Notes: generated by a model from the sequence alone, not told the origin. A DNA stretch of 64,000 nucleotides from a virus (IMGVR_UViG_2721755711_000002); one strand, 5' to 3'; positions 2,621-64,000 are shown, numbered from the stretch's first letter. A program made the numbers and translations.

Positions 2621-3183
2621 TGGAACCATTGATGATGGGAACCTGGCATCAGGCAGTGATTGACAGTCTGAAACAAATTCCCTGGGTGGAAGATGCCGAT
2701 GAGTACCCGGAAAAAGTGACGCAACTGGTGACGCCTGCCGTGTTTGTGGATGTACCCGGCTGGGACAAGGCTCAGTTTGCCGACGGGCAGACACGGGTCA
2801 CGCTGAAATGCGATCTGTTTGTGGTGACTGATCGGGCCGGAAAGACGGAAAACGTGCCAAAACCGCAGATATTTGCCCGCTGTCTGGCAATGGATTTATC
2901 TGACTGGATTGATGGAGCCACGTTCGGGCTGGATAACGTTGATCCGGCGGTTTTTATTGATGCTGAGGTGGATACCTTCGACCGACTGCTGGACGACTAC
3001 ATCGTTTTCCGTGTCTCTTTTGAACAGGACATTCCGGTCGGCGAAGATCCGTTTGCGGCTCCGGCAGGTGTGCCGTTACAGGAAGTCTGGCTGGGTAAAG
3101 TACCGGAAACCGGTAAAAAGCATGTGCAGGATTATCGTCTTATCTGGAAAGCGGAGGGCACCGGCGATGAGTCTGGCGGATGA
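2617..3183 (+). CDS. Putative tail completion protein (lambda U or P2 S position)
   Basis: ATGA overlap with upstream gene; position immediately before gpV-like gene. Confidence 0.35.
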   Translation: MMEPLMMGTWHQAVIDSLKQIPWVEDADEYPEKVTQLVTPAVFVDVPGWDKAQFADGQTRVTLKCDLFVVTDRAGKTENVPKPQIFARCLAMDLSDWIDGATFGLDNVDPAVFIDAEVDTFDRLLDDYIVFRVSFEQDIPVGEDPFAAPAGVPLQEVWLGKVPETGKKHVQDYRLIWKAEGTGDESGG

Positions 3184-3790
3184 AGTGGCAGAGTTACGCC
3201 GCAGGGTGGCGGACATGATCCGTCGCGGCGTGGTGGAAGAGGTGATCCCGGGTAACCCGGTGATGGTTCGGGTGGATATCGGAGATGTGCTTTCGCCGCC
3301 GTTGCCCTGGATTCAGATGCAGTCCGGGCGTTACATGCAGGTCAGTAATTACCCGGCACCAGGAGATGCGGTCACGGTGATATCGGAGGCGGGCGATCTG
3401 CGTAACGGTCGTGTGTATCCAGGGGCGAATATTGACGCCATTCCTGTACCGGCGGGCAGTGAACACGAGCATGTTATTTTGTTTGATACCGGAACGGAAA
3501 TCCGTTACGACCGTAAAGCCAATGCCCTGTCCATCACGCTGGCTGAAGGCGGCAGCTATAAAATCACCGGCAGGGGAACGCTGGACGGTCCGGTGGAAAT
3601 CACGGATACCCTGACTGTGCAGGGAGAAACGAAGATTAATGCCGATACGCAGGTTCTGGGCAATATCGGTGCCTCACAGGAGATCACCGATAAAACCGGC
3701 AGCATGAGTAAAATTCGCGAAATTTATAATACTCATGATCACCCTGGCGACAGCGGGGGAACCACCCGTAAACCTAACCAGGAAATGTGA
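3167..3790 (+). CDS. Baseplate spike/assembly protein, P2 gpV-like
   Basis: C-terminal HDHPGDSGGTTRKP motif typical of P2 gpV; start at M99 of ORF 2873..3790. Confidence 0.8.
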   Translation: MSLADEVAELRRRVADMIRRGVVEEVIPGNPVMVRVDIGDVLSPPLPWIQMQSGRYMQVSNYPAPGDAVTVISEAGDLRNGRVYPGANIDAIPVPAGSEHEHVILFDTGTEIRYDRKANALSITLAEGGSYKITGRGTLDGPVEITDTLTVQGETKINADTQVLGNIGASQEITDKTGSMSKIREIYNTHDHPGDSGGTTRKPNQEM

Positions 3791-3824: not shown

Positions 3825-4181
3825 ATGATTGGTATTGATTCCGCCACCGGCAGATATCTGCACGGTAACGAACATCTGCGTCAGTCCGTCACCGATATTT
3901 TGTCAACACCAGTCGGCAGCCGGGTACTTCTCAGGGAATACGGCAGCAGGCTGTTCAGTCTGCTTGATAACCCGCAGGATGATTTCACACGGGTGAGGAT
4001 TGTCCGTGAGACGGTTACCGCTCTTGAACGCTGGGAACCGAGACTGACGATCCGCCGTGTGGAGGTGAGCTTCGGCGGTGAGGGAAATGTCATGTTGACG
4101 CTTTTGGGCGTGAATAACGAAACACAGGAAACAATTCGTCTGGAGGAAATCAGAATTGACAACGTCTCAGGCCATTATTGA
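3825..4181 (+). CDS. Baseplate wedge protein, P2 gpW / gp25-like
   Basis: ILSTPVGSRVLLREYGS...WEPRL matches P2 W pattern; start at M31 of ORF 3735..4181. Confidence 0.75.
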   Translation: MIGIDSATGRYLHGNEHLRQSVTDILSTPVGSRVLLREYGSRLFSLLDNPQDDFTRVRIVRETVTALERWEPRLTIRRVEVSFGGEGNVMLTLLGVNNETQETIRLEEIRIDNVSGHY

Positions 4182-40613: not shown

Positions 40614-40796
40614 TCAGTTCTGCAGACACTGCCGAACACCGTCGACAATTTCACAGACCTGAGAAGCTGTATCAAAAAGCTGGCGCGCTTTATCCAGGCT
40701 GACACATCCCACCAGGAAAAAAGGCACCAGTATCGCTACCAGCGCCCATTTCACCGCCGTTCGAGGCATTCTGTGTGTCCAGTGTTTTCGGCTCAT
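40614..40796 (-). CDS. Small lipoprotein (o-spanin-like or Bor/Cor-like)
   Basis: Signal peptide with lipobox LVGC; short mature peptide. Confidence 0.45.
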   Translation of the reverse strand: MSRKHWTHRMPRTAVKWALVAILVPFFLVGCVSLDKARQLFDTASQVCEIVDGVRQCLQN

Positions 40797-41393: not shown

Positions 41394-41771
41394 CTATCGC
41401 TTCAATTGAAAATGTGGGCCGTCTTTAAGCGTCCGCCAGTCACCGCCCCATTCGATGGCAGTTCCAAGCTCTGCGGCAGCTTGCTTAAATGCCTGTGCGA
41501 TTTTCTCGTACAGAGGCCAGTCCCATGACACCTGGCTGCCAACATAAGCCACAACATCCACAGCATCACCGGTCAGGTGGCGGCTGTTCATGGTCTGGCT
41601 CTTACCTTCTGCAACCAGCTGTTTCTGGCGATACTTACTGCGCAGACCTTCCGTAATACCGAAATCAACCTCCGTCAGCTCCAGCGCACGGCGAACAACA
41701 GCAACCAGCTGTGGTTTGACGCCCTCCAGATTTTTTTCACTGCGACGACTGAATCTGAATTTACCCGACAT
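41394..41771 (-). CDS. Endolysin, peptidase M15-like
   Basis: SRHLTGDAVD and WGGDW...DGPHF motifs; follows holin genes. Confidence 0.7.
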   Translation of the reverse strand: MSGKFRFSRRSEKNLEGVKPQLVAVVRRALELTEVDFGITEGLRSKYRQKQLVAEGKSQTMNSRHLTGDAVDVVAYVGSQVSWDWPLYEKIAQAFKQAAAELGTAIEWGGDWRTLKDGPHFQLKR

Positions 41772-41773
41772 GC

Positions 41774-42049
41774 TCACCTCCGGAATGAAAGGATTTTTGA
41801 AACGTTCCCGCGTGCACGTATCACCAGCACGCAGAACAGCAGATTAAGCCCCACCGCCAGCCAGTTCGCCGCTAACGGGCGACCGCACAGATAGCTGAGT
41901 GGTGCAAAGGCATAAAGCAGCATCAGTAGCCAGGCCAGCCATGACATCAGCGCTTTATGTCTGGAATCACGGCGACGATAAAAAAAGAGCGTCAGCACGA
42001 TAACCGTGCTTAACACCACATTCAGTAATCCGGGAAGGTTACTTAACAT
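41774..42049 (-). CDS. Holin/antiholin-like membrane protein
   Basis: 91 aa with 2-3 hydrophobic helices. Confidence 0.5.
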   Translation of the reverse strand: MLSNLPGLLNVVLSTVIVLTLFFYRRRDSRHKALMSWLAWLLMLLYAFAPLSYLCGRPLAANWLAVGLNLLFCVLVIRARGNVSKILSFRR

Positions 42050-42428
42050 TACCGCCTCCTCCCCGCAGACGGGAGAACAGCCCGAATACCAGCGATGCGA
42101 TATCCTGCTGGTGGATGAATGAGAGAATCTTCACCGACACCACCGATACCAGTACCGCGCAAAGCGCGTCGAGAGATGTGCTGTGGAGATTCAGTTTTTC
42201 AACCAGGTAAGACGCCATCACATCCGCCCCCAGCACGCCAACAATGAACGACACCAGAAAATGCGCTGCCACACGCCAGACAGAAATCTTCTGTGGTATC
42301 GTGGCCACAAACAGCGCCCCTGCGAATGCACCAAACACAATCCCGAAATCCGTTCCGGTAAACAGCCCGAATACCGTCGCCCCACCGAGCGCCGCAGCCG
42401 TGCCGGAACCGGATAAGGGTTCAGACAT
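42039..42428 (-). CDS. Holin-like membrane protein
   Basis: 129 aa, Gly/Ala-rich hydrophobic helices; RBS aggag. Confidence 0.55.
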   Translation of the reverse strand: MSEPLSGSGTAAALGGATVFGLFTGTDFGIVFGAFAGALFVATIPQKISVWRVAAHFLVSFIVGVLGADVMASYLVEKLNLHSTSLDALCAVLVSVVSVKILSFIHQQDIASLVFGLFSRLRGGGGNVK

Positions 42429-42521
42429 ACTTTTTCTCCTGTAAATAAAAAAGGGCCGCTGTCGGCCCGTAAAAAAACCCCCCGTCAAAGGCACCCACAG
42501 ATGCCTTTTGTGTGGTGCTAT

Positions 42522-42728
42522 TTATTGCTTTAGTGTCATTTGCGCTTCAATAAAGCGACGGCGGTTCTCCGCAATAACAAACGCCATTGCCAGCCCTTTG
42601 ACGGCTGCATCATGACCATACCGGGTCTGAGCAGCAGCAAACCTTCGTTCTATCGCTGCTACAGAATCAATGGCAGAATCTGCTATGCAATTTTCAAATT
42701 CAGTTATCACTTCTGTCGAAGAGGTCAT
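42522..42728 (-). CDS. Small hypothetical protein (uncertain)
   Basis: 68 aa; its ATG abuts the divergent plus-strand ATG within CATATG. Confidence 0.25.
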   Translation of the reverse strand: MTSSTEVITEFENCIADSAIDSVAAIERRFAAAQTRYGHDAAVKGLAMAFVIAENRRRFIEAQMTLKQ

Positions 42729-43409
42729 ATGTACTCCCTGAAAATTAGATGCCCGTACTGCCTTCATCAGGTTCATATTTCTCTGAATGAGGTCACCCAG
42801 TACCACAGCAGGCGCCCGGCTACAGAAAACAAGCTTTACGTGCAACAGCCGCGCACCTCTGAAATAACATCAGCAAAAGCATACTCAACAGACTTTTGCA
42901 CAGAATGTAACAACCCATTAATGATCGCATTCGAATGTTCAGTCAGTGAACTGGTGGACATGAAAAAAGCCATCAACAACAAAGCCTGGGTGCTGAATGC
43001 TCCACTTGAGGGAAGCATCAAAATCTATCCTGAACTCAGGCTGCCCGATGACTCCCCCCACTATCCCGAAAAAATTCGCGCAGTCTTCACCGAGTTGCAA
43101 GAGGATGTTCGGTCCGGCAGAACCGCCCCGCGTATCATTGTTGGCTGCCGTAGCGTCCTCGAGGTTGCCCTCCGTGCCCTGGGGTACGAAAAAGGCAATC
43201 TGCTGTCACGCATTGAACTGGCACGGCAGGACGGCATACTGACGGAATCAATGAGAAACTGGGCTCACCGAATCCGTATGGAAGGCAATGAGGCTGTGCA
43301 CGAGCTCGAGGCCAGTGGTGAACAGGCAAAAGAGTTTGTGGCGTTTCTCCGCCTGTTCCTTGAAGTGGCATTTGTGCTACCGGAACGCATTAAGGAACAG
43401 CAGCAATAA
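42729..43409 (+). CDS. Zinc-ribbon protein with C-terminal DUF4145-like domain (cargo gene, opposite strand)
   Basis: CPYC...CTEC pairs at N-terminus; C-terminal ...RNWAHRIRMEGNEAVHELE... resembles DUF4145; RBS gaagagg. Confidence 0.55.
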   Translation: MYSLKIRCPYCLHQVHISLNEVTQYHSRRPATENKLYVQQPRTSEITSAKAYSTDFCTECNNPLMIAFECSVSELVDMKKAINNKAWVLNAPLEGSIKIYPELRLPDDSPHYPEKIRAVFTELQEDVRSGRTAPRIIVGCRSVLEVALRALGYEKGNLLSRIELARQDGILTESMRNWAHRIRMEGNEAVHELEASGEQAKEFVAFLRLFLEVAFVLPERIKEQQQ

Positions 43410-43443
43410 AAATGCAGCGGGCTTTCAATGCCCGCTCAAATAA

Positions 43444-43602
43444 TCAGCTGTTGTTTTTGTTCCGGAATAAAGGCCGGAGCACGACCAGCGCCATCGCCAC
43501 CAGTACACCATCAGCCAGTACCGACATCAGCCGTCCGGTGAAATCCACCGCCACTACCAGAAACAGCAGGACGGCAGCCAGCGCAAGGCGTGCACTTTTC
43601 AC
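43444..43602 (-). CDS. Small two-helix membrane peptide (52 aa), coupled to TerB-like gene
   Basis: GTG start overlaps TerB-like stop (GTGA); translation KSARLALAAVLLFLVVAVDFTGRLMSVLADGVLVAMALVVLRPLFRNKNNS; below ORF-track size cutoff. Confidence 0.3.
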   Translation of the reverse strand: MKSARLALAAVLLFLVVAVDFTGRLMSVLADGVLVAMALVVLRPLFRNKNNS

Positions 43603-44024
43603 AGGTACTGCTCCAGCGGTAACTGCAGCGCCTGAGCAATTTTCTTGAGCTGTGCTTCTTCATCCGGACCAATGCCATCCTGGTCTGCGATATCCAGACA
43701 CAGGCACAGCACATTAACGGCATCATCAGTACCGGCGACATCAGCCAGTTGACGGAGGGCTTCAGCATTGGCAGAACGCGGCGATGCTTCATAACGGGCG
43801 CGGATATTCGCGCTCATCTGGGCAATCTCACCGGAGAACGGCGCAAAGGCAGGAAGTGCTGCAATGGTTTTCTCCAGTACCGCAATTTCTTTCGCGTCAC
43901 AGGTGTCGTCAGCGTATGCAATGGAATACGCGCCCCAGACGGTCGCCTCCACCGCGTCGCGGTTCTCCATTTTCTTCACTTCAGTAATAGCCTTACGGGT
44001 TTTCTTTTTGAAAATACCAAACAT
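43599..44024 (-). CDS. TerB-like domain protein
   Basis: ~141 aa; acidic helical protein (...DTCDAKEIAVLEKTIAAL...DIADQDGIGPDEEAQLKKIA) resembling TerB family. Confidence 0.5.
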   Translation of the reverse strand: MFGIFKKKTRKAITEVKKMENRDAVEATVWGAYSIAYADDTCDAKEIAVLEKTIAALPAFAPFSGEIAQMSANIRARYEASPRSANAEALRQLADVAGTDDAVNVLCLCLDIADQDGIGPDEEAQLKKIAQALQLPLEQYL

Positions 44025-44221
44025 CGTGACTTTTCCTTTTAGTGGGTGAGCCTCGCCCCGGGATGAGCAGCCCACAGAGAAAGTCACACTGACCATCCCG
44101 TAAGCTCCCCCCTGAAAGGCTCTGTGGTTTTTTGATGTGCGCCGGGCGTGGCGCAGATATGAAAAAGGCCACGCACGTGCGCAGCCTGATAATTTTCTGA
44201 ATCAGCGGAGTGTCAGCTGGT

Positions 44222-44749
44222 TTACCCTTTCACTTCTGAAAGGGATTTTTTGCCAAACGTCACTTCATTCATTGACATAAGTATGCTGTCTTTAATGTAT
44301 TCGCACACTTCATTAATTTTTGCGTTGGTATCCACATGCGAAAATGTCCTGGCCTGATAACCATCAACCGAAATCGTCATGTTGTCGCCATCAAGTAACA
44401 GAATACTCACTGTAATATTCACACTTACAGACTGGCGGGGATCATCATCAACAACCGTATATAAATTAAAAGTAACCCCATCCTGAAAATCTACCTGCAA
44501 ATCCTCCGGTTTCTCACAACAACTATCATGAGAAAGATAAACATAGGGATGGGAGTTACCGTCAATATCCAGCCATCGTGGTTTCGGCAATGCCAGTGAG
44601 TCTTCATAGGTCTTGACCAGCCTTTTTGCCATATCCCGCAGTCGCTGGATGTACTCCTGTCTGGCCTCCTGAATTTCAGCCTGCTTTGCCCGAATGTCTG
44701 CATATGTGATCACAGTCTCAATTCTCCTGTATACAGAAAAATAAAACAT
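44222..44749 (-). CDS. Hypothetical protein (AT-rich cargo gene)
   Basis: Start uncertain (M103 of ORF 44222..45055). Confidence 0.3.
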   Translation of the reverse strand: MFYFSVYRRIETVITYADIRAKQAEIQEARQEYIQRLRDMAKRLVKTYEDSLALPKPRWLDIDGNSHPYVYLSHDSCCEKPEDLQVDFQDGVTFNLYTVVDDDPRQSVSVNITVSILLLDGDNMTISVDGYQARTFSHVDTNAKINEVCEYIKDSILMSMNEVTFGKKSLSEVKG

Positions 44750-45112
44750 AATAATAGCCAACCGGGAAAAGATGAAAAATGCCATAACAGAACAGGCATT
44801 GCGCACGGATAAAAAAATGCCCGTCATGAGACGGGCTAAAACATTCATCATGCAAGAGTTAAGCAGGATTACTTGTATCGAATTATCGGTATCAGAATGA
44901 GTCGTCAACCTGCAACCGCAATTCTGGCGAATCGTAGGCCCCGGCACAGGCGACGACTCATTCTGATAACGCATACCATTAACAATGTAAAAAACACAGC
45001 ACTGAAACTGTAACCGATCAGGCATTACAGAATGAAGAAAATAAAATGTCCGCAACCAGATTCTTCACGAAAATGCGCCAGTGCTGATAAAACTATGACT
45101 CATCAGTTTTAC

Positions 45113-45189
45113 TGGAGAGCGGGTGACGGGAATCGAACCCGCATCATCAGCCTGGAAAGCTGAGGTAATAGCCATTATACGATACCCGC
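45113..45189 (-). tRNA. tRNA-Gly(UCC)-like gene, possibly degenerate
   Basis: GCGGGTATCGTATAATGGCTATTACCTCAGCTTTCCAGGCTGATGATGCGGGTTCGATTCCCGTCACCCGC...; resembles glyT as recalled but with an A7-C66 mismatch and TCTCCA instead of TCCA at the 3' end. Confidence 0.5.
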
Positions 45190-45407
45190 ATACTGTGCTG
45201 GCCTCCGGAATCACACGAATTACCAGGAAAGCCAGCACTGGTCTTTCCGGTGGCAAGCAACACCCCTGTGAACATAAAGACAACCACCTTCCGGACCAGT
45301 CAGAATACTAACGACAGTTTTTCAGACATCAAAAATATATTTGGTGTTCAGTTTTAAATATGTGTATACATCTGTATCAGAAATATACAACGTATATCAT
45401 CACTGAA

Positions 45408-46454
45408 TTAAAAATCTTTCGTTATTTCTCTGACCGTCTGATTAAAACGTTCCTCTTCCAGTTCCACGCCAATCGCCCTGCGTCCCAGCGACAGTGCCGC
45501 TTTTATTGTCGACCCCGACCCCATAAAAAAATCTGCGACCAAATCGCCAGGACGGCTGCTGGCAGTAATTATCTGACGCAACATATCCGCCGGTTTTTCA
45601 CAGGGATGTTTGCCCGGATAATACTGCACGGGCTTGTGCGTCCAGACATCCGTATAAGGAACGACAGCCGATACGGAAAAATAACGCCGCAGTGATTTGT
45701 ATTCCTCCAGCAGGCTGGCATATTGCCGGTTCAGTTCGCTGTATGTGCTGACCAGCTGGTGGTGTGGCTGCTCCAGTTCACCGCGCTGGTGTTTTTCTGC
45801 CACCACACGTGCAAACAGCGCCTGCAGTTTACTGTAATCGGCCTCATTCGGTAACTGCCACTGACTGGTACCAAACCAGTGCGAAGCCATGTTTTTCTTT
45901 CCGGTGGCTTCCGCTATCTGTTTTGACGTTATTCCCAGTGATTCACGCGCATCACGAAAGTAAGAAATCAGCGGGGCCATGACGTGCTGTTTTAGCTCAC
46001 GCCCCTTTGCCGCATAGCCGTCATTTTTGGGCTGGTATGGCCCCTGATAATGTTCAGCAAACAGAATGCGTTCTGTTGCCGGAAAATACGCCCGCAGGCT
46101 TTCCTTGTTGCACCCGTTCCAGCGCCCGAACGGCTTCGCCCAGATAATGTGGTTCAGCACATTAAAGCGTTCACGCATCATGATTTCGATATCAGATGCC
46201 AGGCGATGACCACAGAACAGGTAGAGACTTCCGGCAGGTTTCAGTACCCGCCAGAACTGCGCCAGACACTGAGCCAGCCATTTCAGGTAATCATCGTCGC
46301 CCTTCCACTGGTTATCCCAGCCCTCGGGCTTCACTTTAAAGTATGGCGGGTCTGTGACTATCAAATCGACAGAGTTTTCCGGTAAGGTCCGGATAAATTC
46401 CAGGCAATCAGCGTTGATTAACTCACAACTGGATATTTTTACAGTATTAGCCAT
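45408..46454 (-). CDS. Orphan DNA methyltransferase (amino-MTase, DPPY type)
   Basis: IVTDPPYF catalytic motif near N-terminus and FMGSGST SAM-binding motif near C-terminus; no adjacent restriction gene. Confidence 0.8.
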   Translation of the reverse strand: MANTVKISSCELINADCLEFIRTLPENSVDLIVTDPPYFKVKPEGWDNQWKGDDDYLKWLAQCLAQFWRVLKPAGSLYLFCGHRLASDIEIMMRERFNVLNHIIWAKPFGRWNGCNKESLRAYFPATERILFAEHYQGPYQPKNDGYAAKGRELKQHVMAPLISYFRDARESLGITSKQIAEATGKKNMASHWFGTSQWQLPNEADYSKLQALFARVVAEKHQRGELEQPHHQLVSTYSELNRQYASLLEEYKSLRRYFSVSAVVPYTDVWTHKPVQYYPGKHPCEKPADMLRQIITASSRPGDLVADFFMGSGSTIKAALSLGRRAIGVELEEERFNQTVREITKDF

Positions 46455-46604
46455 AGATCAGTAAGCACTTCTCTGATAGGCTCATACCGCTTTTGCGCAA
46501 AGCAGATGGGCCTGAGGTTTGCTTGTGATCCCAACACATGAGCAGATGGCTGGCAGGTGCCGCTAACACCCACCAGCCGCCCATTACCACAAATTAAAAA
46601 GCCT

Positions 46605-46802
46605 TCACTGAGGAAGGCGTCTGTAACAACCGAACTGATAATCTGCCAGACCCGCCATAACAAGCTGGGTCAGTATTAACTGGCAGCGTTCGCGTGAAAG
46701 GTAAGTATTCTGCGCAATTTCCCCGACGGTCGCCGGTTCGGTGACGCTTAATTCATTAAACACCACTCTGGCGGTTTCGGTCATATCCTGCTGTTTTAGC
46801 AT
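46605..46802 (-). CDS. Small winged-helix-like protein
   Basis: 65 aa; RBS aggga. Confidence 0.35.
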   Translation of the reverse strand: MLKQQDMTETARVVFNELSVTEPATVGEIAQNTYLSRERCQLILTQLVMAGLADYQFGCYRRLPQ

Positions 46803-46925
46803 GTCTTTTTCCCTTTTCCGGTTAACGTGACATACCAATAACTCTTGTCGAAAAAGCCAGCAAGCTGAAAGACCGGTATTCGTAACCACCAGCGCATTTA
46901 ACGTCCTGTACCGCTTTTTGGGCAC

Positions 46926-46952
46926 AAAAAAACCCGCTTGGCGGCGGGTTTT
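46926..46952. terminator. Bidirectional intrinsic terminator just downstream of Q-like gene (tR'-like position)
   Basis: A-run, aacccgc-ttggcg-gcgggtt hairpin, T-run. Confidence 0.55.
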
Positions 46953-47014
46953 GCTTACTTTGCCATCGCGTACAAAATCGGCAAAATATCAGATTTGCAT
47001 GAAATATATGCTTT

Positions 47015-47710
47015 TTAATCTACTTTTGCAATACTTTGCTTTGAAAATGCCGCCTTTTGTTCCGAACGCGTTCTCATTACCAACAATAAAGCCTCACTAT
47101 CCAGCTGGTGGAAAATGTGTTTCATTGCAACCCAGTGACCAGTAAATGTTTTGGACCAGTTTTTAGTTGTCACTCCCGCCAGTAATGCCAGCTCCTGGTA
47201 TTCATAACCTTCCCCGCCAAAAAGTTCTGCTTTTACTGCCTGCGCCGCCAGCCAGATTAATTTTTTCAGGCGTTCCCGTGTTTTCTCTGCAATTTTCCTG
47301 TTGCCAGAATGAGCCTTAAACTCTTCCCATGCCCAGCGGGTTATGGTGACCTGATACTCCCAGCAAATATTTCCGCTGTAACACCACAACAACCAGGTTT
47401 TATGAGGTTCTTCAAGAGACAGAACAGCCCGTCGCCATGAGGATGTCGAAAACTCAACCTGACTTACCAGAGGAATTGACGTCCCCTTCGCCAGCGATTG
47501 TTTCCCCGGGATTGGTGGATTATCCCGCGTGATCATTTTTCCAGTCACTTCATCGCGGTACCGGATTTTTTTACGCCTGTAACGCCCTGTATCGAACATG
47601 GCATTCTCCTGCCAGGCTTCAAGCTGACCTTTTGTTGCCCCACTCAAATCGGCGGTGGCGATAATGAGCTGCTCACGAACAAACTGTAAATACTGGTTAT
47701 TCATGCGCAC
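47015..47710 (-). CDS. Putative late-gene antiterminator (Q-like)
   Basis: 231 aa directly downstream of rusA and upstream of terminator and lysis region, as in lambdoid phages. Confidence 0.5.
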   Translation of the reverse strand: MRMNNQYLQFVREQLIIATADLSGATKGQLEAWQENAMFDTGRYRRKKIRYRDEVTGKMITRDNPPIPGKQSLAKGTSIPLVSQVEFSTSSWRRAVLSLEEPHKTWLLWCYSGNICWEYQVTITRWAWEEFKAHSGNRKIAEKTRERLKKLIWLAAQAVKAELFGGEGYEYQELALLAGVTTKNWSKTFTGHWVAMKHIFHQLDSEALLLVMRTRSEQKAAFSKQSIAKVD

Positions 47711-49516: not shown

Positions 49517-49777
49517 TCACGGTTTGGGCTGGAAATTCTTATTCAGCGCTCTGCACTGCTCTTTGTCTTCTTCTTCATGGGCTTTAAATACAGAATAAGT
49601 ATCAGGGTCAAAAAACGAGATAGATTCTACTTCCCTCTTGGCTACAAGTATCCGAAAGTCTTCAAGGCTAAGGCCGCCAAGACCTTCCGCTACAATTCCT
49701 TCTGACTGATAATGTCGGCGGTAGTTTGTTGTGATGTTTGTAGTTAACGTACCCTTATCCCGATACCCGATACCCAC
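49517..49777 (-). CDS. Hypothetical protein (possible C-terminal continuation of 49755..50342)
   Basis: AT-rich; 23-nt overlap with upstream ORF. Confidence 0.25.
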   Translation of the reverse strand: MGIGYRDKGTLTTNITTNYRRHYQSEGIVAEGLGGLSLEDFRILVAKREVESISFFDPDTYSVFKAHEEEDKEQCRALNKNFQPKP

Positions 49778-50342
49778 TCAACAGCGGAAGAAGTTCAATA
49801 TGGGTAAAATCGCCGTTTTCAAAACTTGGGCAGATAACAATTCCAACGTAAAATTTTCTGGATGAGAGTGTTATAATGACGGGAAACTGCCTGACTGCTG
49901 CTTCCATAAGGAAGCTCTCTTCTGGACTTGTGGAAACAATTCTTGCGATAGCATCCAACCTGCGATCCCCTTTCTCTGTTCTTTTTTTGCGCCGCCAACC
50001 GCAAAATGCAGCAAGAGCAACAGATGTCATTCCCCAGACTGCAGATTTAAGATCCTTTATCGAATTTCCTCCATCAAAAGAGATAGGAAAAACTCTTTTC
50101 AGGGCATCAGGACCAAGATGAAAAAAATGCAGAATACCGTTAATCAACCAGCGGTATACCCCAAGGAAACCAAGGATCGTACAAACAACCCACGCAACAC
50201 AGACAAAAACAGCTCCCCAGGTTGCAACAAAAAAATAAGCGTCCCATCCCACAGAACGCTTATACCTATATCTTGTTTCCAAACAAAGAGTAACATAAAC
50301 ATAACCACTAATCAGTATGACAGCGATCAATAGCGTATTCAT
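49755..50342 (-). CDS. Membrane protein (AT-rich cargo gene)
   Basis: Three N-terminal hydrophobic helices; overlaps ORF 49517..49777 in another frame (possible frameshift or two genes). Confidence 0.35.
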   Translation of the reverse strand: MNTLLIAVILISGYVYVTLCLETRYRYKRSVGWDAYFFVATWGAVFVCVAWVVCTILGFLGVYRWLINGILHFFHLGPDALKRVFPISFDGGNSIKDLKSAVWGMTSVALAAFCGWRRKKRTEKGDRRLDAIARIVSTSPEESFLMEAAVRQFPVIITLSSRKFYVGIVICPSFENGDFTHIELLPLLSGYRVSG

Positions 50343-50797: not shown

Positions 50798-50953
50798 TTA
50801 CTCCTCAGATTCGTAAGCTGTGAAGACAGCGACCTCCGTCTGGCCGGTTCGGATTCGTACCTCGCAGAGGTCTTTCCTCGTTACCAGTGCCGTCACTATG
50901 ACGGTTAAACAGATGACGATCAGGGCGATTAACATCGCCTTTTGCTGCTTCAT
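50798..50953 (-). CDS. hok: Hok/Gef family type I toxin
   Basis: MKQQKAMLIALIVICLTVIVTALVTRKDLCEVRIRTGQTEVAVFTAYESEE; in-frame leader upstream (mok-like) and GC-rich stem-loops downstream. Confidence 0.8.
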   Translation of the reverse strand: MKQQKAMLIALIVICLTVIVTALVTRKDLCEVRIRTGQTEVAVFTAYESEE

Positions 50954-51243
50954 AGCCTGCTTCTCCTTGCCTTTCGGCACGTAAGAGGCTAACCTACATG
51001 TGTTCAGCATGGATTGAGCCTCAGATTAATGTTAAGCGTCTTGCAGGACGCGTAATGTTAACTGGGGCTTTTCTCTATCTGCCGTTGGTGTTCATGCCCG
51101 AGGCAGATAGCCTCAAGCACCCGCAGCAATTCTACTTAACTCTCCTTTTCCCGCAAACCGTTTTTATCCCCATCGGCAAATCGAATACACCACCAGCGCC
51201 ACCGCCATCGCAATTCCTACCGTTGTGAATGCTTCGGGCCAGG

Positions 51244-59121: not shown

Positions 59122-59656
59122 TCTTAACTCTCTTTGTTGTTGGGGTATCCGGATTATACAAATTTCTTGTCGTTGGGGAATGACGGAAACCACCTCGCCT
59201 GACGTGGTTAAAAGCAGGCACACAACGCGAAAGCGCACGGCGAAGGTTTCTTTTCCTTAGAAGGCTTGTCGTTAGATTTCTTCGACCGTGCACTTCCGGT
59301 TGTGGCAATCCGCGAAATGGCGCGGCGGTAAGTATGGCGGGTTATCCTTACCCCCATTGTGGCACCGGGTTGGCAGGTTGACCATACGCTTAAGTGACAA
59401 CCCCGCTACAACACTCCATGTTGATTTGTACCTTTGGCGGCATCAGTTTCATTGCTGGCTGATGTCCGCCCTTTTTAAAGTGAATTTTGTGATGCGGTGA
59501 ATGCGGCTCAGCGCACGCGGAACAGTTAAAAAGCGATTAGTTCCCCCGTATCGGGTGTTTATGGGTTCCCTGTATCCGGCGTTAATTGTTAACTGGTTAA
59601 CGTCACCTGGAGGCACCAGGCACCGCATCACAAAATTCATTGTTGAGGACGCGATA

Positions 59657-59845
59657 ATGGAAACGTTATTACTCAATTCCACTACGCCTGAAACTCGTTT
59701 TGAAATTGGCGTTATCACTGGCGATAAAACTTTTATTGAGGATGCCATTAACCAGATAAAGCATGAGCCGGATTCATTAAATAAGGTTTGCATTGTTTCA
59801 ATGATGGCCCGTTCACGCCTGATGCAAAAAGGATACTGGCAATGA
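59657..59845 (+). CDS. Small hypothetical protein
   Basis: 62 aa; RBS gagga. Confidence 0.3.
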   Translation: METLLLNSTTPETRFEIGVITGDKTFIEDAINQIKHEPDSLNKVCIVSMMARSRLMQKGYWQ

Positions 59846-60045
59846 ATACCACATTTGCACTTGTTCTGACGGTTTTTCTTGTTTCCGGTGAACCAGTTGA
59901 CATGGTTACTGGCGTATACAGCTCAATGAAAGAATGCATGGCTGCCGCAGATGAACAGAAAATTCCCGGTAACTGTTATCCGGTCGATAAAGTTATTCGC
60001 ATGGATAATAACGAAGTCCCGGCAGGACTTAAAACAGCACCGTAA
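59842..60045 (+). CDS. Small secreted/membrane protein
   Basis: N-terminal hydrophobic segment; ATGA coupling to upstream ORF. Confidence 0.35.
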   Translation: MNTTFALVLTVFLVSGEPVDMVTGVYSSMKECMAAADEQKIPGNCYPVDKVIRMDNNEVPAGLKTAP

Positions 60046-60122
60046 TTAATATCCGGTTTCATTTTTATATGTCAGAAATGGCAGGGATTTGTTCACCCTA
60101 AAAATAGTTACGAGGTTTATCA

Positions 60123-62579
60123 ATGAGCGCTGATAAAGAAGAAATTGCACTATATTACGAAGCCAAAAATGACAAAGTCAGAAAACGCCTTGGGATTAAA
60201 GGCGGTTTTTACTGGCGCACAGCAAAAAAATTATCGGTTGCAATATCACGCGGTGTTGTCGCAATGGACGATGCCGGATTTGACGAAGAGGATTTTAAAA
60301 AACCTGTTCGCGTCCATTTACCCATTGTGAATGACCTTCCTCCGGAAGGCGTGTTTGATACCGAATTCTGCAATCGATACGAAAAAGGCGGGGAAGATGG
60401 TATAACAATGGTATTTATTGAGACATCTCACTCTGCGCAGGACAAACCAGCCAGCACTGACAATACCAACGTCAACGGCGAAGACATGACGGAGATTGAG
60501 GAGAACATGCTCCTGCCGGTTTCAGGTCAGATTCTGCCTGTTCGATGGCTGGCACAGCACGGCAGCGAAAAACCGATCACACACGTTTCGCGGGACGAAC
60601 TGCGCGCATTACATAACGCACAGGATGAAAAACTTCCCGCCGTTACCGCTCTGGCCATCTCAAATAAAGCAGCGCAACTCGAACCGCTGGAAATTCGCGA
60701 TCTCCACAAACTGGTTCGTGACACGGACAAAGTTTTCCCTAATCCTGGTAATTCAGACCTGGGACTGATGACTGCTTTTTTCGAAGCATACCTGGGCGCT
60801 GACTACACCGATCGCGGTCTGCTGACAAAAGAGTGGATGAAAGGAAATCGTGTTTCACGCATTACCCGCACGGCTTCCGGTGCTAATGCCGGTGGAGGAA
60901 ACAAAACCGATCGCAATCCTAATTTAGTACACACCTTCGATACGCTGGATGTGGAGATTGCAGCGGCCACACTTCCGATGGATTTTAATATTTATGAAAT
61001 TCCGGGCAGCGTTTATCGTCGCGCAAAAGAAGTCGTCCGGAAGAAAGAAAGCCCGTTCAAAGAATGGTCCGCAGCACTTCGCGCAATCCCGGGTATCCTG
61101 GATTATTCCCGCGCCGCTATTTTTGCGCTTATCCGGAGCGCACACCCTGAATTTTATCATTACCCGGGACGCCTTCAGGGGTATATCAACGCCTACTTAA
61201 CGGAGACTGATCACGAGAACCCCAGCAAGGAAACTCTCACTGCTGCACGACATACACCGGAAAAAGATATCCTGGAAGAAGTTAACCGCGAGCTGGCTGC
61301 CGGGCAAGAAACAGAAGAAGAAAAAAATGATGAAGAAAAACCGCAACCGTCTGGCGTACTGGCAGATGAACAGGCAACGGCTGAAACAATGGAACCGGAT
61401 ACAACTGAACATCGCCAGGACACGCAATCGCTGGATACTCAGGAACAGGTAGATCCAGTTAATCAGGTGAAAGTTACCGCTGACGAAGTAAACAAAATTA
61501 TGCAGGCAGCCAATATCGGCCAGCCTGACGCCGATAAGTTGCTTGCGGCCTCTCGCGGTGAATTTGTTGCAGGGATTAGCGACCCGAATGATCCGAAATG
61601 GGTGAAGGGGATTGAAACCCGCGATTCAGTGAATCAGAACCAGCAAGAAACGGAACAGAACGACCAGAAAGCGGAACAAAACAGCCCAAATGCGTTACAA
61701 AACGAGCCAGAAACGAAACAACATGAACCAGCAGCGCAACAGGAACCGGAAAAAGCCTGCACCGTCTGCGGTCAGACCGGCAGCGGCAACTTCCCTGATT
61801 GTGGCGCGGTGATGGGCGACGCAACATACCTGGAAACATTCGATGAAGAGAATCAGGTTGAAGTTCAGGAAAATGATCCGGAGGAAATGGAAGGCGCTGA
61901 ACATCCACACAAGGAGAATGCTGGCAGCGCTCAGGACCACGCCAGCGATAATGAAACTGGCGAGGCGGCAGATCACTCAATTAAGGTGAACGGTCATCAC
62001 GAAATCACATCCACCAGCAGGACGTGTGACCATCTCATGATCGACCTCGAAACCATGGGAAAAAATCCTGATGCCCCGATTATCTCAATAGGTGCAATAT
62101 TTTTCGATCCGCAAACCGGAGATATGGGACCGGAATTTAGTAAGACTATCGATCTGGAAACTGCTGGCGGAGTCATTGATCGGGACACCATTAAATGGTG
62201 GCTGAAGCAATCACGCGAAGCGCAATCTGCCATTATGACCGATGAAATCCCGTTAGATGATGCACTGTTACAATTGCGAGAATTTATCGACGAAAACTCC
62301 GGTGAATTTTTTGTTCAGGTCTGGGGAAATGGAGCCAACTTCGACAACACGATTTTGCGCCGTTCATACGAACGGCAGGGGATCCCCTGCCCGTGGCGTT
62401 ACTACAACGATCGCGATGTACGCACAATTCTTGAACTGGAAAAAGCCATAGACTTCGATGCCAGAACGGCTATTCCATTCGAAGGCGTACCCCACAATGC
62501 GCTGGACGATGCCCGTCACCAGGCAAAACAAGTTTCAGCTATCTGGCAAAAACTGATCCCGAGTCAGGCTGATTTTTAA
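60123..62579 (+). CDS. Large early protein, RecE-like N-terminal region with C-terminal DEDDh-type 3'-5' exonuclease-like domain
   Basis: 818 aa; C-terminal motifs [25 protein letters not shown]; N-terminal block [17 protein letters not shown]...[10 protein letters not shown] resembles RecE as recalled. Confidence 0.5.
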
Positions 62580-62643
62580 TGTTCAACCCCGGTCGTCGCC
62601 CACCAGCTATAGTGGTGGCGACCATGATTAGCGAACGACGCTC

Positions 62644-62892
62644 ATGGCAAGACTTATTCTGCTCACTGAGTGGGCAAAAGAGGAATTCAGCGATCCGGTC
62701 CCGACTCCGGGCACGTTAAGTAAATACGCTAAAGCCGGAATGATATTTCCTCTCCCCAAAAAAGTTGGAAGACACTGGCGAGTGGATCCACGAGCTCGCT
62801 TTGTCGGAATGGTAAACAAGCCGGAGGTGATCGCCACAGATCACCCTGCTTTGAAGAGGATACTGGAAGATGGCGCGCCCGCGAAAATATAA
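62644..62892 (+). CDS. xis: Excisionase (Xis-like)
   Basis: 82 aa immediately upstream of and overlapping int; LTEW...FPLP pattern like lambda Xis. Confidence 0.55.
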   Translation: MARLILLTEWAKEEFSDPVPTPGTLSKYAKAGMIFPLPKKVGRHWRVDPRARFVGMVNKPEVIATDHPALKRILEDGAPAKI

Positions 62893-64000
62893 AACCGAAG
62901 TTCCGGGACTATCTCCGTATTTTGACAAAAGAAATAACAAAGTTTACTGGCGTTACAGGCATCCCATAACAGGCAAAAATCACGGTCTCGGCAGTATTGA
63001 CCAGAAACTGGCAGAAACTATTGCAGCAGAAGCGAACAGCCGTCTTGCCAGGCAGCAAATGGAACAAATGCTCAGTCTGCAGGAGAAAATTATTAATGAT
63101 ACCGGCGGTTCATCAACCGTTTCCATTTTTCTGAATAATTACAGAAAAATTCAACAGGAAAGATATGAAAACGGAGAGATCAAACTCAACACGCTGAAAC
63201 AAAAAGCGGCCCCTCTCAGGGTATTTGATGAACGTTTTGGCACCAGACCGTTAGATGCCATAACTGTAAAAGATGTGGTATCGGTGCTGGAAGAGTACAA
63301 GGCCAGAGGACATAACAGAATGGGGCAAATTTTCAGGAAGGTACTGATCGATGTTTTCCGGGAAGCTCAGCAAACAGGCGATGTTCCGCCAGGCTTTAAC
63401 CCTGCAGAATCGGCAAAAAAACCGCAGGTGCGGATATCAAGACAGCGACTGACTTTTGATGAGTGGATGATGATTTATAACGCAGCGGAAAAGGATGGTT
63501 ACTTTTTACAGCGCGGCATGCTGCTGGCACTGATGACAGGCCAGCGCCTTTCAGATATTTGCAAAATGCAATTTTCGGATATCCGGGATGGTTATCTTCA
63601 TGTCGAACAGCAAAAAACAGGAACCCGGATTGCCATCCCTCTTGCTCTGCGTTGCAATAAATTAAATCTCACCCTGGATGATGTGGTGTCATCCTGTCGC
63701 GATTGCGTTCTTAGTCCGTGGCTATTGCACCACCATCATGCGAAAGGGACAGCCAAGCGCGGCGGGATGGTTAAGCCAGCAACGTTAACAGTTGCATTTA
63801 AAAAAGCGCGGGATTCTGTAGATTACAACTGGTGCGCTAATGGTACCCCACCCTCTTTCCATGAACAGCGATCATTGTCGGAGCGCTTGTTCAGGGAGCA
63901 AGGGATCGACACCCAAATTTTGCTGGGCCATTCGAATCAAAAAATGACCGATATTTACAACGATGCACGTGGTAAGGAGTGGAAAAAACTGGTCATTTGA
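62870..64000 (+). CDS. int: Tyrosine integrase, lambda Int family
   Basis: Strong similarity to lambda Int including C-terminal LLGHSNQKMTDIYNDARGKEWKK; stop at window end. Confidence 0.9.
   Translation: MARPRKYKTEVPGLSPYFDKRNNKVYWRYRHPITGKNHGLGSIDQKLAETIAAEANSRLARQQMEQMLSLQEKIINDTGGSSTVSIFLNNYRKIQQERYENGEIKLNTLKQKAAPLRVFDERFGTRPLDAITVKDVVSVLEEYKARGHNRMGQIFRKVLIDVFREAQQTGDVPPGFNPAESAKKPQVRISRQRLTFDEWMMIYNAAEKDGYFLQRGMLLALMTGQRLSDICKMQFSDIRDGYLHVEQQKTGTRIAIPLALRCNKLNLTLDDVVSSCRDCVLSPWLLHHHHAKGTAKRGGMVKPATLTVAFKKARDSVDYNWCANGTPPSFHEQRSLSERLFREQGIDTQILLGHSNQKMTDIYNDARGKEWKKLVI

Follow-up and report, generated by a model that had tools for sequence, protein, structure and literature searches.

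The window analysed here is a 64,000-nucleotide stretch of viral DNA (IMGVR_UViG_2721755711_000002), in which we studied the block at 42428-47015, located between a gene for a Q antiterminator and the lysis genes of a lambdoid (E. coli-type) prophage. The block is likely to be a variable cargo slot in the late operon of this prophage, which runs from Q with its promoter and terminator to the holin gene and is filled with four kinds of element of separate origins. It is mostly ordinary, a known kind of locus built from members of known families.

Gene content and position of the slot

The late genes of the prophage lie on the minus strand, as do all features described here unless stated otherwise. 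The slot is bounded on its upstream side by the Q gene (47015-47710), which encodes a protein of 231 amino acids (aa) that matches Pfam PF06323 (E 4.9e-89) and phrog_304 (E 1.5e-105). The end of this gene is overlapped by a pR'-like sigma-70 promoter, TTGCAA-17-TATATT (47003-47031), which was found by a consensus scan and whose position was read from the sequence. This site would act as the late promoter ahead of a tR'-like intrinsic terminator at 46926-46952, which consists of a 9-bp stem followed by U7 and folds at -13 to -14 kcal/mol.

Beyond the terminator, a small TrmB-like protein of 65 aa is encoded at 46605-46802. It matches phrog_331 (E 4.5e-47), while its match to Pfam TrmB (E 0.0059) falls below the Pfam cut-off; the phiP27 homologue is named 'TrmB family' in RefSeq. 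A weak terminator-like hairpin (46601-46618; -8.9 kcal/mol) is found 3' of the gene. Next comes the gene for an orphan β-class N6-adenine DNA methyltransferase of 348 aa (45408-46454; Pfam N6_N4_Mtase, E 7.5e-45; PADLOC MTase_II, E 3.7e-153), which contains the motifs DPPY (residues 34-37) and FMGSG (residues 310-314) in the β-class order. The two genes belong together: among the 80 loci encoding this methyltransferase that we fetched from IMG/VR, the small gene accompanies it in 76 and is missing only where the contig stops within ~200 bases upstream. A tRNA-Gly(UCC) gene with an encoded CCA follows at 45117-45189 (ARAGORN; Rfam tRNA, 52.5 bits). What seems to be the stub of a second tRNA gene adjoins it at 45190-45212 on the same strand; the homology with E. 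coli E9 runs ~20 bases past tRNA-Gly into the E9 tRNA-Thr gene, which relatives keep intact.

The central part of the slot contains an AT-rich gene for a 163-aa protein (44222-44713; phrog_5091) with a local guanine-cytosine content of 41-44%, which is flanked by intrinsic terminators on its 5' side (44819-44836; -15.0 kcal/mol, z -5.8) and its 3' side (44166-44187; -14.9 kcal/mol). Translation probably begins with the GTG at 44713, so that the gene encodes the conserved 163-aa core and not a 277-aa open reading frame (ORF). Downstream lie a gene for a TerB-domain protein of 141 aa (43599-44024; Pfam TerB, 29 bits against a cut-off of 24.4; phrog_632, E 9.5e-64) and one for a DUF3927 membrane peptide of 52 aa with two helices (43444-43602; Pfam DUF3927, E 7.3e-14; phrog_1470, E 1.5e-24), the start of which overlaps the TerB stop codon (ATGA). 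The DUF3927 gene converges on the only opposite-strand gene, at 42729-43409 on the plus strand, which encodes a 226-aa protein with a Cys4 zinc ribbon and an HEPN-like DUF4145 domain. A hairpin at 43416-43436 is common to these two genes and folds on both strands (minus, -14.4 kcal/mol; plus, -15.0 kcal/mol). The start of the plus-strand gene abuts that of a 68-aa gene at 42522-42728 (CAT|ATG), and a further intrinsic terminator (42453-42468; -12.8 kcal/mol, z -3.5) stands just 5' of the holin gene. The region is enriched in terminator-like sites, a scan finding 18 where shuffled sequence gave 7.4 +/- 2.6. Of the late-strand hairpins, six fold convincingly, five of them inside the block beyond that at 46926-46952.

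The lysis cassette that closes the slot begins with a holin of the Phage_holin_8 family (42039-42428; Pfam PF16931, E 2.5e-22), followed by a second holin, Phage_holin_3_7 (41774-42049; Pfam PF05449, E 5e-20), and an M15 peptidase endolysin (41394-41777; Pfam PF13539, E 2.9e-12; phrog_465, E 3.5e-75). Located 3' of the endolysin gene, a 60-aa ORF (40614-40796, minus strand; phrog_7528) with a signal-peptide-like start and an LVGC lipobox may encode an outer-membrane spanin; we saw no clear inner-membrane spanin partner for it.

This gene content agrees largely with a first-pass annotation of the stretch, which had listed a Q-like gene, the terminator at 46926-46952, a DPPY orphan methyltransferase, a tRNA-Gly(UCC), an AT-rich gene, a TerB gene with a small membrane peptide and an opposite-strand zinc-ribbon/DUF4145 gene, all of which we find at the same coordinates. 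It had overlooked the 68-aa gene at 42522-42728, some of its gene starts had to be changed, and the holin start is 42428. The small protein that it had called winged-helix is indeed encoded, although the TrmB match below the Pfam cut-off lends that label weak support. The same annotation had placed the block in the position held by stx genes in Stx phages, and here the genome comparisons bear it out.

Phage phiP27 (NC_003356) shows blastn homology on either side of the block, with 87% identity over the endolysin and holins (41400-42523) and 92% identity over the methyltransferase, small gene and terminator (45426-46951); its genes for tRNA-Ile, tRNA-Arg, stxA2e and stxB2e sit between the two aligned stretches. 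Because the flanks are directly homologous and enclose stx2e in phiP27, the alignments identify the slot of the window as the same variable slot that holds stx2e there. The homology ends at the terminator, at 46951 for phiP27 and E. coli EC11 and at 46948 for E. coli E9. The Stx2 phage 1720a-02 carries the same small gene and methyltransferase directly 5' of stx2A, the methyltransferases being 86% identical, and one IMG/VR locus (L030) has stx in the same arrangement between the same flanks. Family scans of the slot ORFs in the window gave no stx gene, these ORFs being assigned elsewhere; no direct search of the window with Stx sequences was made, tblastn having been run on the related loci.

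Both anchors of the slot are present in 47 of the 80 IMG/VR loci, which hold the same holin in addition to the methyltransferase. In these loci the methyltransferase and the holin lie 506 to 2183 bp apart, in every case less than the ~2980 bp of the window. The gap is occupied by tRNA sets alone (Gly; Thr+Gly; Ile/Arg/Arg; Lys), by the TerB/DUF3927 pair (14/47) or by stx (1/47). A second cargo position was seen in E. coli EC11 (L003 6965-8068, plus strand), where an opposite-strand ompC-like porin gene lies between the antiterminator and TrmB-like genes, 5' of the terminator module.

A RAZR-like gene and its divergent partner

The plus-strand gene runs antisense to the late operon, and its extent was set by its homologues. 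In an alignment of 19 homologues, residues C8, C11, C57 and C60 of the N-terminal zinc ribbon are invariant, and a structure model predicts β-hairpins at residues 3-18 and 48-71. The C-terminal DUF4145 domain has the HEPN fold. Its residues R183 and H191 (R-x7-H) are likewise invariant among the 19 homologues and nearly so in a broader alignment, and they align with the motif RIVGNQAVH of RAZR. The zinc-ribbon part is variable, with a mean identity of 39% compared to 72% for the HEPN part, and the same pattern has been reported for RAZR.

RAZR (PD-T7-4; PDB 9Y9C) is an abortive-infection ribonuclease (RNase) whose zinc finger assembles around ring-shaped phage proteins and whose DUF4145 domain cuts RNA by means of R146 and H154 (PMC13017515). 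When a profile of 34 sequences headed by the window protein was searched against the PDB, the top match was the RAZR cryo-electron microscopy chain 9y9c_OA (E 6.3e-7; next match, 0.11), with the R-x2-GN-x-AVH motifs aligned; a PDB search with the 19-sequence profile missed RAZR. Family members gathered with the protein's own profile match the PD-T7-4 model at E values down to 7e-8, some over almost their full length. These data suggest that the window protein belongs to a distant sister clade of RAZR and is not its orthologue, the sequence link being distant but real. Through this homology the zinc-ribbon/DUF4145 gene is the only gene in the slot for which a defence role appears to have real support. 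By analogy with RAZR, we infer that the RNase-like gene would be expressed in the lysogen and that its product would act as an abortive-infection RNase, switched on when the variable zinc ribbon binds a protein of an infecting phage. A weak TTGTGT-17-TAGTGT, seen by eye at ~42509-42537, was considered as a promoter for the gene and is not relied on.

The divergent 68-aa gene has no Pfam, NCBIfam or PHROG family match. Relative to a Salmonella homologue, its nucleotide differences number 7, 7 and 37 at the first, second and third codon positions, and 28 of the codon changes are synonymous against 12 that are not; this pattern marks it as a real protein-coding gene. Shine-Dalgarno-like sequences precede both this gene and the RNase gene. 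Homologous small genes of 66-81 aa stand in the same arrangement beside RNase homologues in other prophages: flanked by the lysis genes and the Nu1 terminase gene in Salmonella prophages, between antiterminator and holin in a Pantoea prophage, between Q and holin as well as just downstream of a cro-like gene in metagenomic lambdoid prophages, and in a Mu-like Paraburkholderia prophage. Counting the window, there are eight contexts; in each, the RNase gene runs antisense to the lytic genes on its flanks, and in seven an intact small gene runs in sense.

The pairing is conserved but not obligate. In three contigs (L088, positions 3844-4008 on the minus strand, and also L089 and L090) the RNase homologue is intact beside a small gene that lacks a start codon and is interrupted by an in-frame stop; the slot of these contigs also holds a gene with an NMT1_3 domain and an 86-aa lipoprotein-like gene. 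Conversely, the Mu-like phage contig L100 carries, at 3001-3261 on the plus strand and just 5' of gemA/mor, a small-gene homologue that is 73% identical to the Paraburkholderia one and has no adjoining DUF4145 gene, so the small gene can travel alone.

These exceptions bear on an explanation in which the 68-aa and zinc-ribbon/HEPN genes form a toxin-antitoxin addiction module that stabilises the prophage, with the small protein as the essential antitoxin and no sensing of phage. HEPN proteins are common toxins, and tight linkage of the two genes is kept in distant hosts, as such a module would have it. The genes are divergent, however, and thus not co-transcribed as an operon, and no toxicity is seen when RAZR, the nearest relative to have been characterised, is overproduced by itself (PMC13017515). 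We rejected a classical toxin-antitoxin pair as the principal explanation because the RNase gene persists beside a decayed small gene in L088-L090; given also the solitary small gene of the Mu-like phage, we regard this explanation as improbable.

The location of a RAZR relative inside a late operon raises a question of its own, as a prophage that carries a sensor of phage structural proteins must avoid triggering it at its own induction. That this problem is real for HEPN defences in prophages follows from the study of HepS in Gifsy-1, which describes another solution to it (PMC13043305). We tentatively propose, as a possibility that we hold to be well short of even, that the 68-aa protein is a dedicated partner which is made only during the prophage's own lytic growth and prevents the prophage itself from setting off the RNase. 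On induction, lytic transcription would pass antisense through the RNase gene and the small protein would be made; it would neutralise the RNase, and the prophage's own ring-shaped proteins, such as the portal, would trigger no suicide. If this holds, the small gene would serve an anti-defence purpose in phages that, like the Mu-like L100, have it without the RNase gene. Of the elements in the block, only the paired small gene is new; the methyltransferase, the tRNA and the TciA/TciB homologues are already known from Stx phages and P1. As a candidate answer to the question of self-triggering, this conserved partner makes the rare RAZR-like module the part of the block that is worth experiment.

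Independent modules and their predicted roles

The elements of the slot occur independently of one another. E. coli EC11 has the same arrangement without 42525-43468, the 68-aa and DUF4145 genes, and E. coli E9 lacks 44170-45117 with the 163-aa gene. No genome among the 5426 complete E. coli genomes examined reaches 80% coverage of the block; its methyltransferase region is matched in 2639 of them and the DUF4145 module in 5. The DUF4145 module is also found without TerB in other prophage contexts. Because they are found independently in related prophages, the modules do not make up one system, and the comparison identifies the block as a stack of independent modules rather than a single defence cassette.

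The methyltransferase has no nuclease for a neighbour: no nuclease family match was obtained in the slot, where it is flanked by the 65-aa TrmB-like gene and the tRNA gene, and annotated related loci are likewise without a flanking endonuclease gene. Its PADLOC matches are to methylase models only. The enzyme of phage 1720a-02 has been named as very similar to the non-specific adenine methyltransferase M.EcoGII, which is silent in the lysogen and harmful if constitutively expressed, and for which a role in shielding phage DNA and a switch-on at prophage excision have been suggested (PMC5778455). From this we infer a methylation specificity of the M.EcoGII type. Because M.EcoGII is silent in the lysogen, because no endonuclease gene is present and because PADLOC returns methylase models only, the enzyme probably serves as a late-expressed protection of phage DNA from restriction, that is, as counter-defence and not host defence. 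Only if Q allows RNA polymerase past the terminators would the backbone of the slot be transcribed, and progeny phage DNA would then be methylated by the enzyme as a guard against restriction.

As for the tRNA gene, GGA makes up 19-22% of the glycine codons in the late and early genes of the prophage and 13% of those in the cargo genes. The share of GGA in prophage genes exceeds that in E. coli genes. Because of this greater use, the tRNA-Gly(UCC), which reads GGA, fits the usual role of phage tRNAs and can be seen as ordinary late-region phage cargo; it would supply a codon heavily used by the phage. The 163-aa gene, in turn, may be a self-contained module with its own terminators and promoter-like site, TTTTCA-16-TATTAT at 44751-44778, a hit from the consensus scan only. 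The fold of its protein points to a binding function more than to an enzyme.

The TerB-domain protein is the orthologue of TciA of phage P1, to which it is 85.1% identical over its full length, and the DUF3927 peptide is 48% identical to P1 TciB. A counterpart of tciC is not present, the hairpin at 43436-43416 standing directly 3' of the DUF3927 gene. In the GenBank record of P1, tciA and tciB are located downstream of the C1-controlled ban promoter. Homologues of the TerB protein are encoded by virulent phages, such as Erwinia jumbo phages and Salmonella phages of ~70 kb, and no PADLOC model matches the TerB/DUF3927 pair. Because of the P1 context, the homologues in virulent phages and the missing PADLOC match, the pair most likely has a membrane-associated function in the lytic phase.

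The first-pass annotation had read the set of genes as a defence or exclusion cassette and had suggested a profile search of the DefenseFinder/PADLOC kind. A PADLOC search returned a weak PD-T7-4 match for the DUF4145 gene and MTase_II for the methyltransferase and left the TerB pair without a match. The idea survives in part: homology with RAZR supports it for the DUF4145 gene, whereas the methyltransferase is better understood as counter-defence, the tRNA as cargo and the TerB pair as P1-like, and the modules are independent. In its full form, the idea would have one coordinated island in which the methyltransferase, the TerB pair and the 163-aa and DUF4145 genes protect the lysogen jointly. 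All of these genes do share one slot, PADLOC type II methylase models match the methyltransferase, ter operons have been linked to phage inhibition in the literature, and a 2013 survey found DUF4145 genes occasionally coupled with TerD-type systems. A joint TerB and DUF4145 system along the lines of that survey was nevertheless rejected, as the two modules occur independently, TerB pairs standing without a DUF4145 gene in 14 of the 47 two-anchor loci and DUF4145 modules elsewhere without TerB. EC11 and E9 each lack one module, the frequencies in E. coli genomes differ widely (2639 against 5 of 5426), the methyltransferase has no endonuclease partner and TerB homologues occur in virulent phages. 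We therefore think a coordinated island very improbable. We give equally little credence to the view that the block is phage housekeeping for lytic growth without effect on the host, its opposite-strand gene encoding an RNA-processing or DNA-binding factor. In favour of this view, the PHROG label of the DUF4145 family is 'DNA binding protein', and a lytic-phase role is plausible for the methyltransferase, the tRNA and the TerB pair. Against it, the RNase gene runs counter to lytic transcription in all eight contexts, as expected of prophage-expressed genes, is too rare and patchy for a core function, and encodes a homologue of a proven defence protein.

Several observations weigh against our preferred reading, that of a cargo slot which holds a RAZR-like defence gene among lytic-phase genes. 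The PD-T7-4 match of the window protein in PADLOC is weak (E 1.1e-3, 16.4 bits) and confined to the HEPN part; a PDB sequence search with this protein alone did not reach the RAZR chain, and Foldseek found nothing significant for it in the PDB. The consensus scan gave no sigma-70 promoter on the plus strand 5' of the RNase gene. Given the link between ter operons and phage inhibition, the TerB pair may have a defence or exclusion role. Finally, the methyltransferase is linked to the M.EcoGII type by way of a single intermediate protein and what a paper says of it, not through the M.EcoGII sequence.

Further features were observed elsewhere in the prophage. In the early-right (nin-like) region, a full-length match to the sok antisense RNA at 50948-51122 on the minus strand (113.5 bits, gathering score 59) implies that a toxin locus of the hok/sok type is present; in a related prophage (L095/L096), a HOK_GEF gene occupies a comparable place. 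A 195-aa ORF at 49755-50342 on the minus strand (phrog_3630), with hydrophobic N-terminal segments, lies in a stretch of 40-43% GC of the early-right region and may be another inserted accessory gene. The part of the window at 59500-64000 is still prophage, with exonuclease, dicB, excisionase and integrase-type genes that are 91-94% identical to those of E. coli prophages; the attachment site is not within the examined part of the window.

Comparison with known systems

Each of the main components has a described counterpart. M.EcoGII, from a prophage of E. coli O104:H4 (PMC5778455), resembles the methyltransferase of the window in being a prophage-borne β-class enzyme of 348-349 aa with an N-terminal DPPY, a C-terminal FxGxG and no endonuclease partner.

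RAZR and the window protein are similar in size (~211 and 226 aa) and in domain order, with a Cys4 zinc ribbon at the N-terminus and, after a linker, a C-terminal DUF4145 domain that has R-x2-GN-x-AVH and the same spacing from R to H. The window protein has a longer loop between the Cys pairs and an extra predicted helix, and the sequence relation is distant. A conserved divergent partner gene of 68 aa accompanies it in the window, whereas RAZR is described in its paper as a one-gene system. HepS of the prophage Gifsy-1 (PMC13043305) also belongs to the class of abortive-infection proteins with a single HEPN domain, is encoded by a lambdoid-type prophage and faces the problem of self-triggering. 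It has no zinc ribbon, however, and is of another HEPN family, judging from its description, and self-targeting is avoided by a non-triggering variant of the tail tip and not by a partner gene.

The arrangement of the slot, and not only its genes, recurs in phage P1. The P1 dmt-tRNA-tciABC region (L101, P1 66733-74155) follows the order of the window, with a methyltransferase, tRNAs, two small opposite-strand genes, tciA and tciB, the last two overlapping. P1 differs in that its Dmt is a different and larger enzyme, that it has tciC and another tRNA, and that the region lies 3' of the C1-controlled ban promoter rather than in a Q-dependent late operon. This likeness suggests that P1-like and lambdoid phages exchange the arrangement as well as individual genes.

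Accessory genes in the late region are familiar from lambda, whose morons, such as bor, are expressed in the prophage and in some cases lie on the opposite strand with a promoter and terminator of their own. The proteins of the window are unrelated to these, and the window stacks several such genes in one slot. Phage phiP27 shares with the window the order antiterminator, terminator, TrmB-like gene, methyltransferase, tRNAs, cargo, Phage_holin_8, Phage_holin_3_7 and M15 endolysin. The window differs from it in having no stx, a tRNA-Gly(UCC) in place of the Ile and Arg tRNAs, five other protein genes as cargo and another type of Q; in phiP27, moreover, Q is separated from the small gene by the gene for a GIY-YIG nuclease. 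Viewed against phiP27, the stx slot of lambdoid phages is a general, recombination-prone docking site, which bears on how stx moves between phage backbones.

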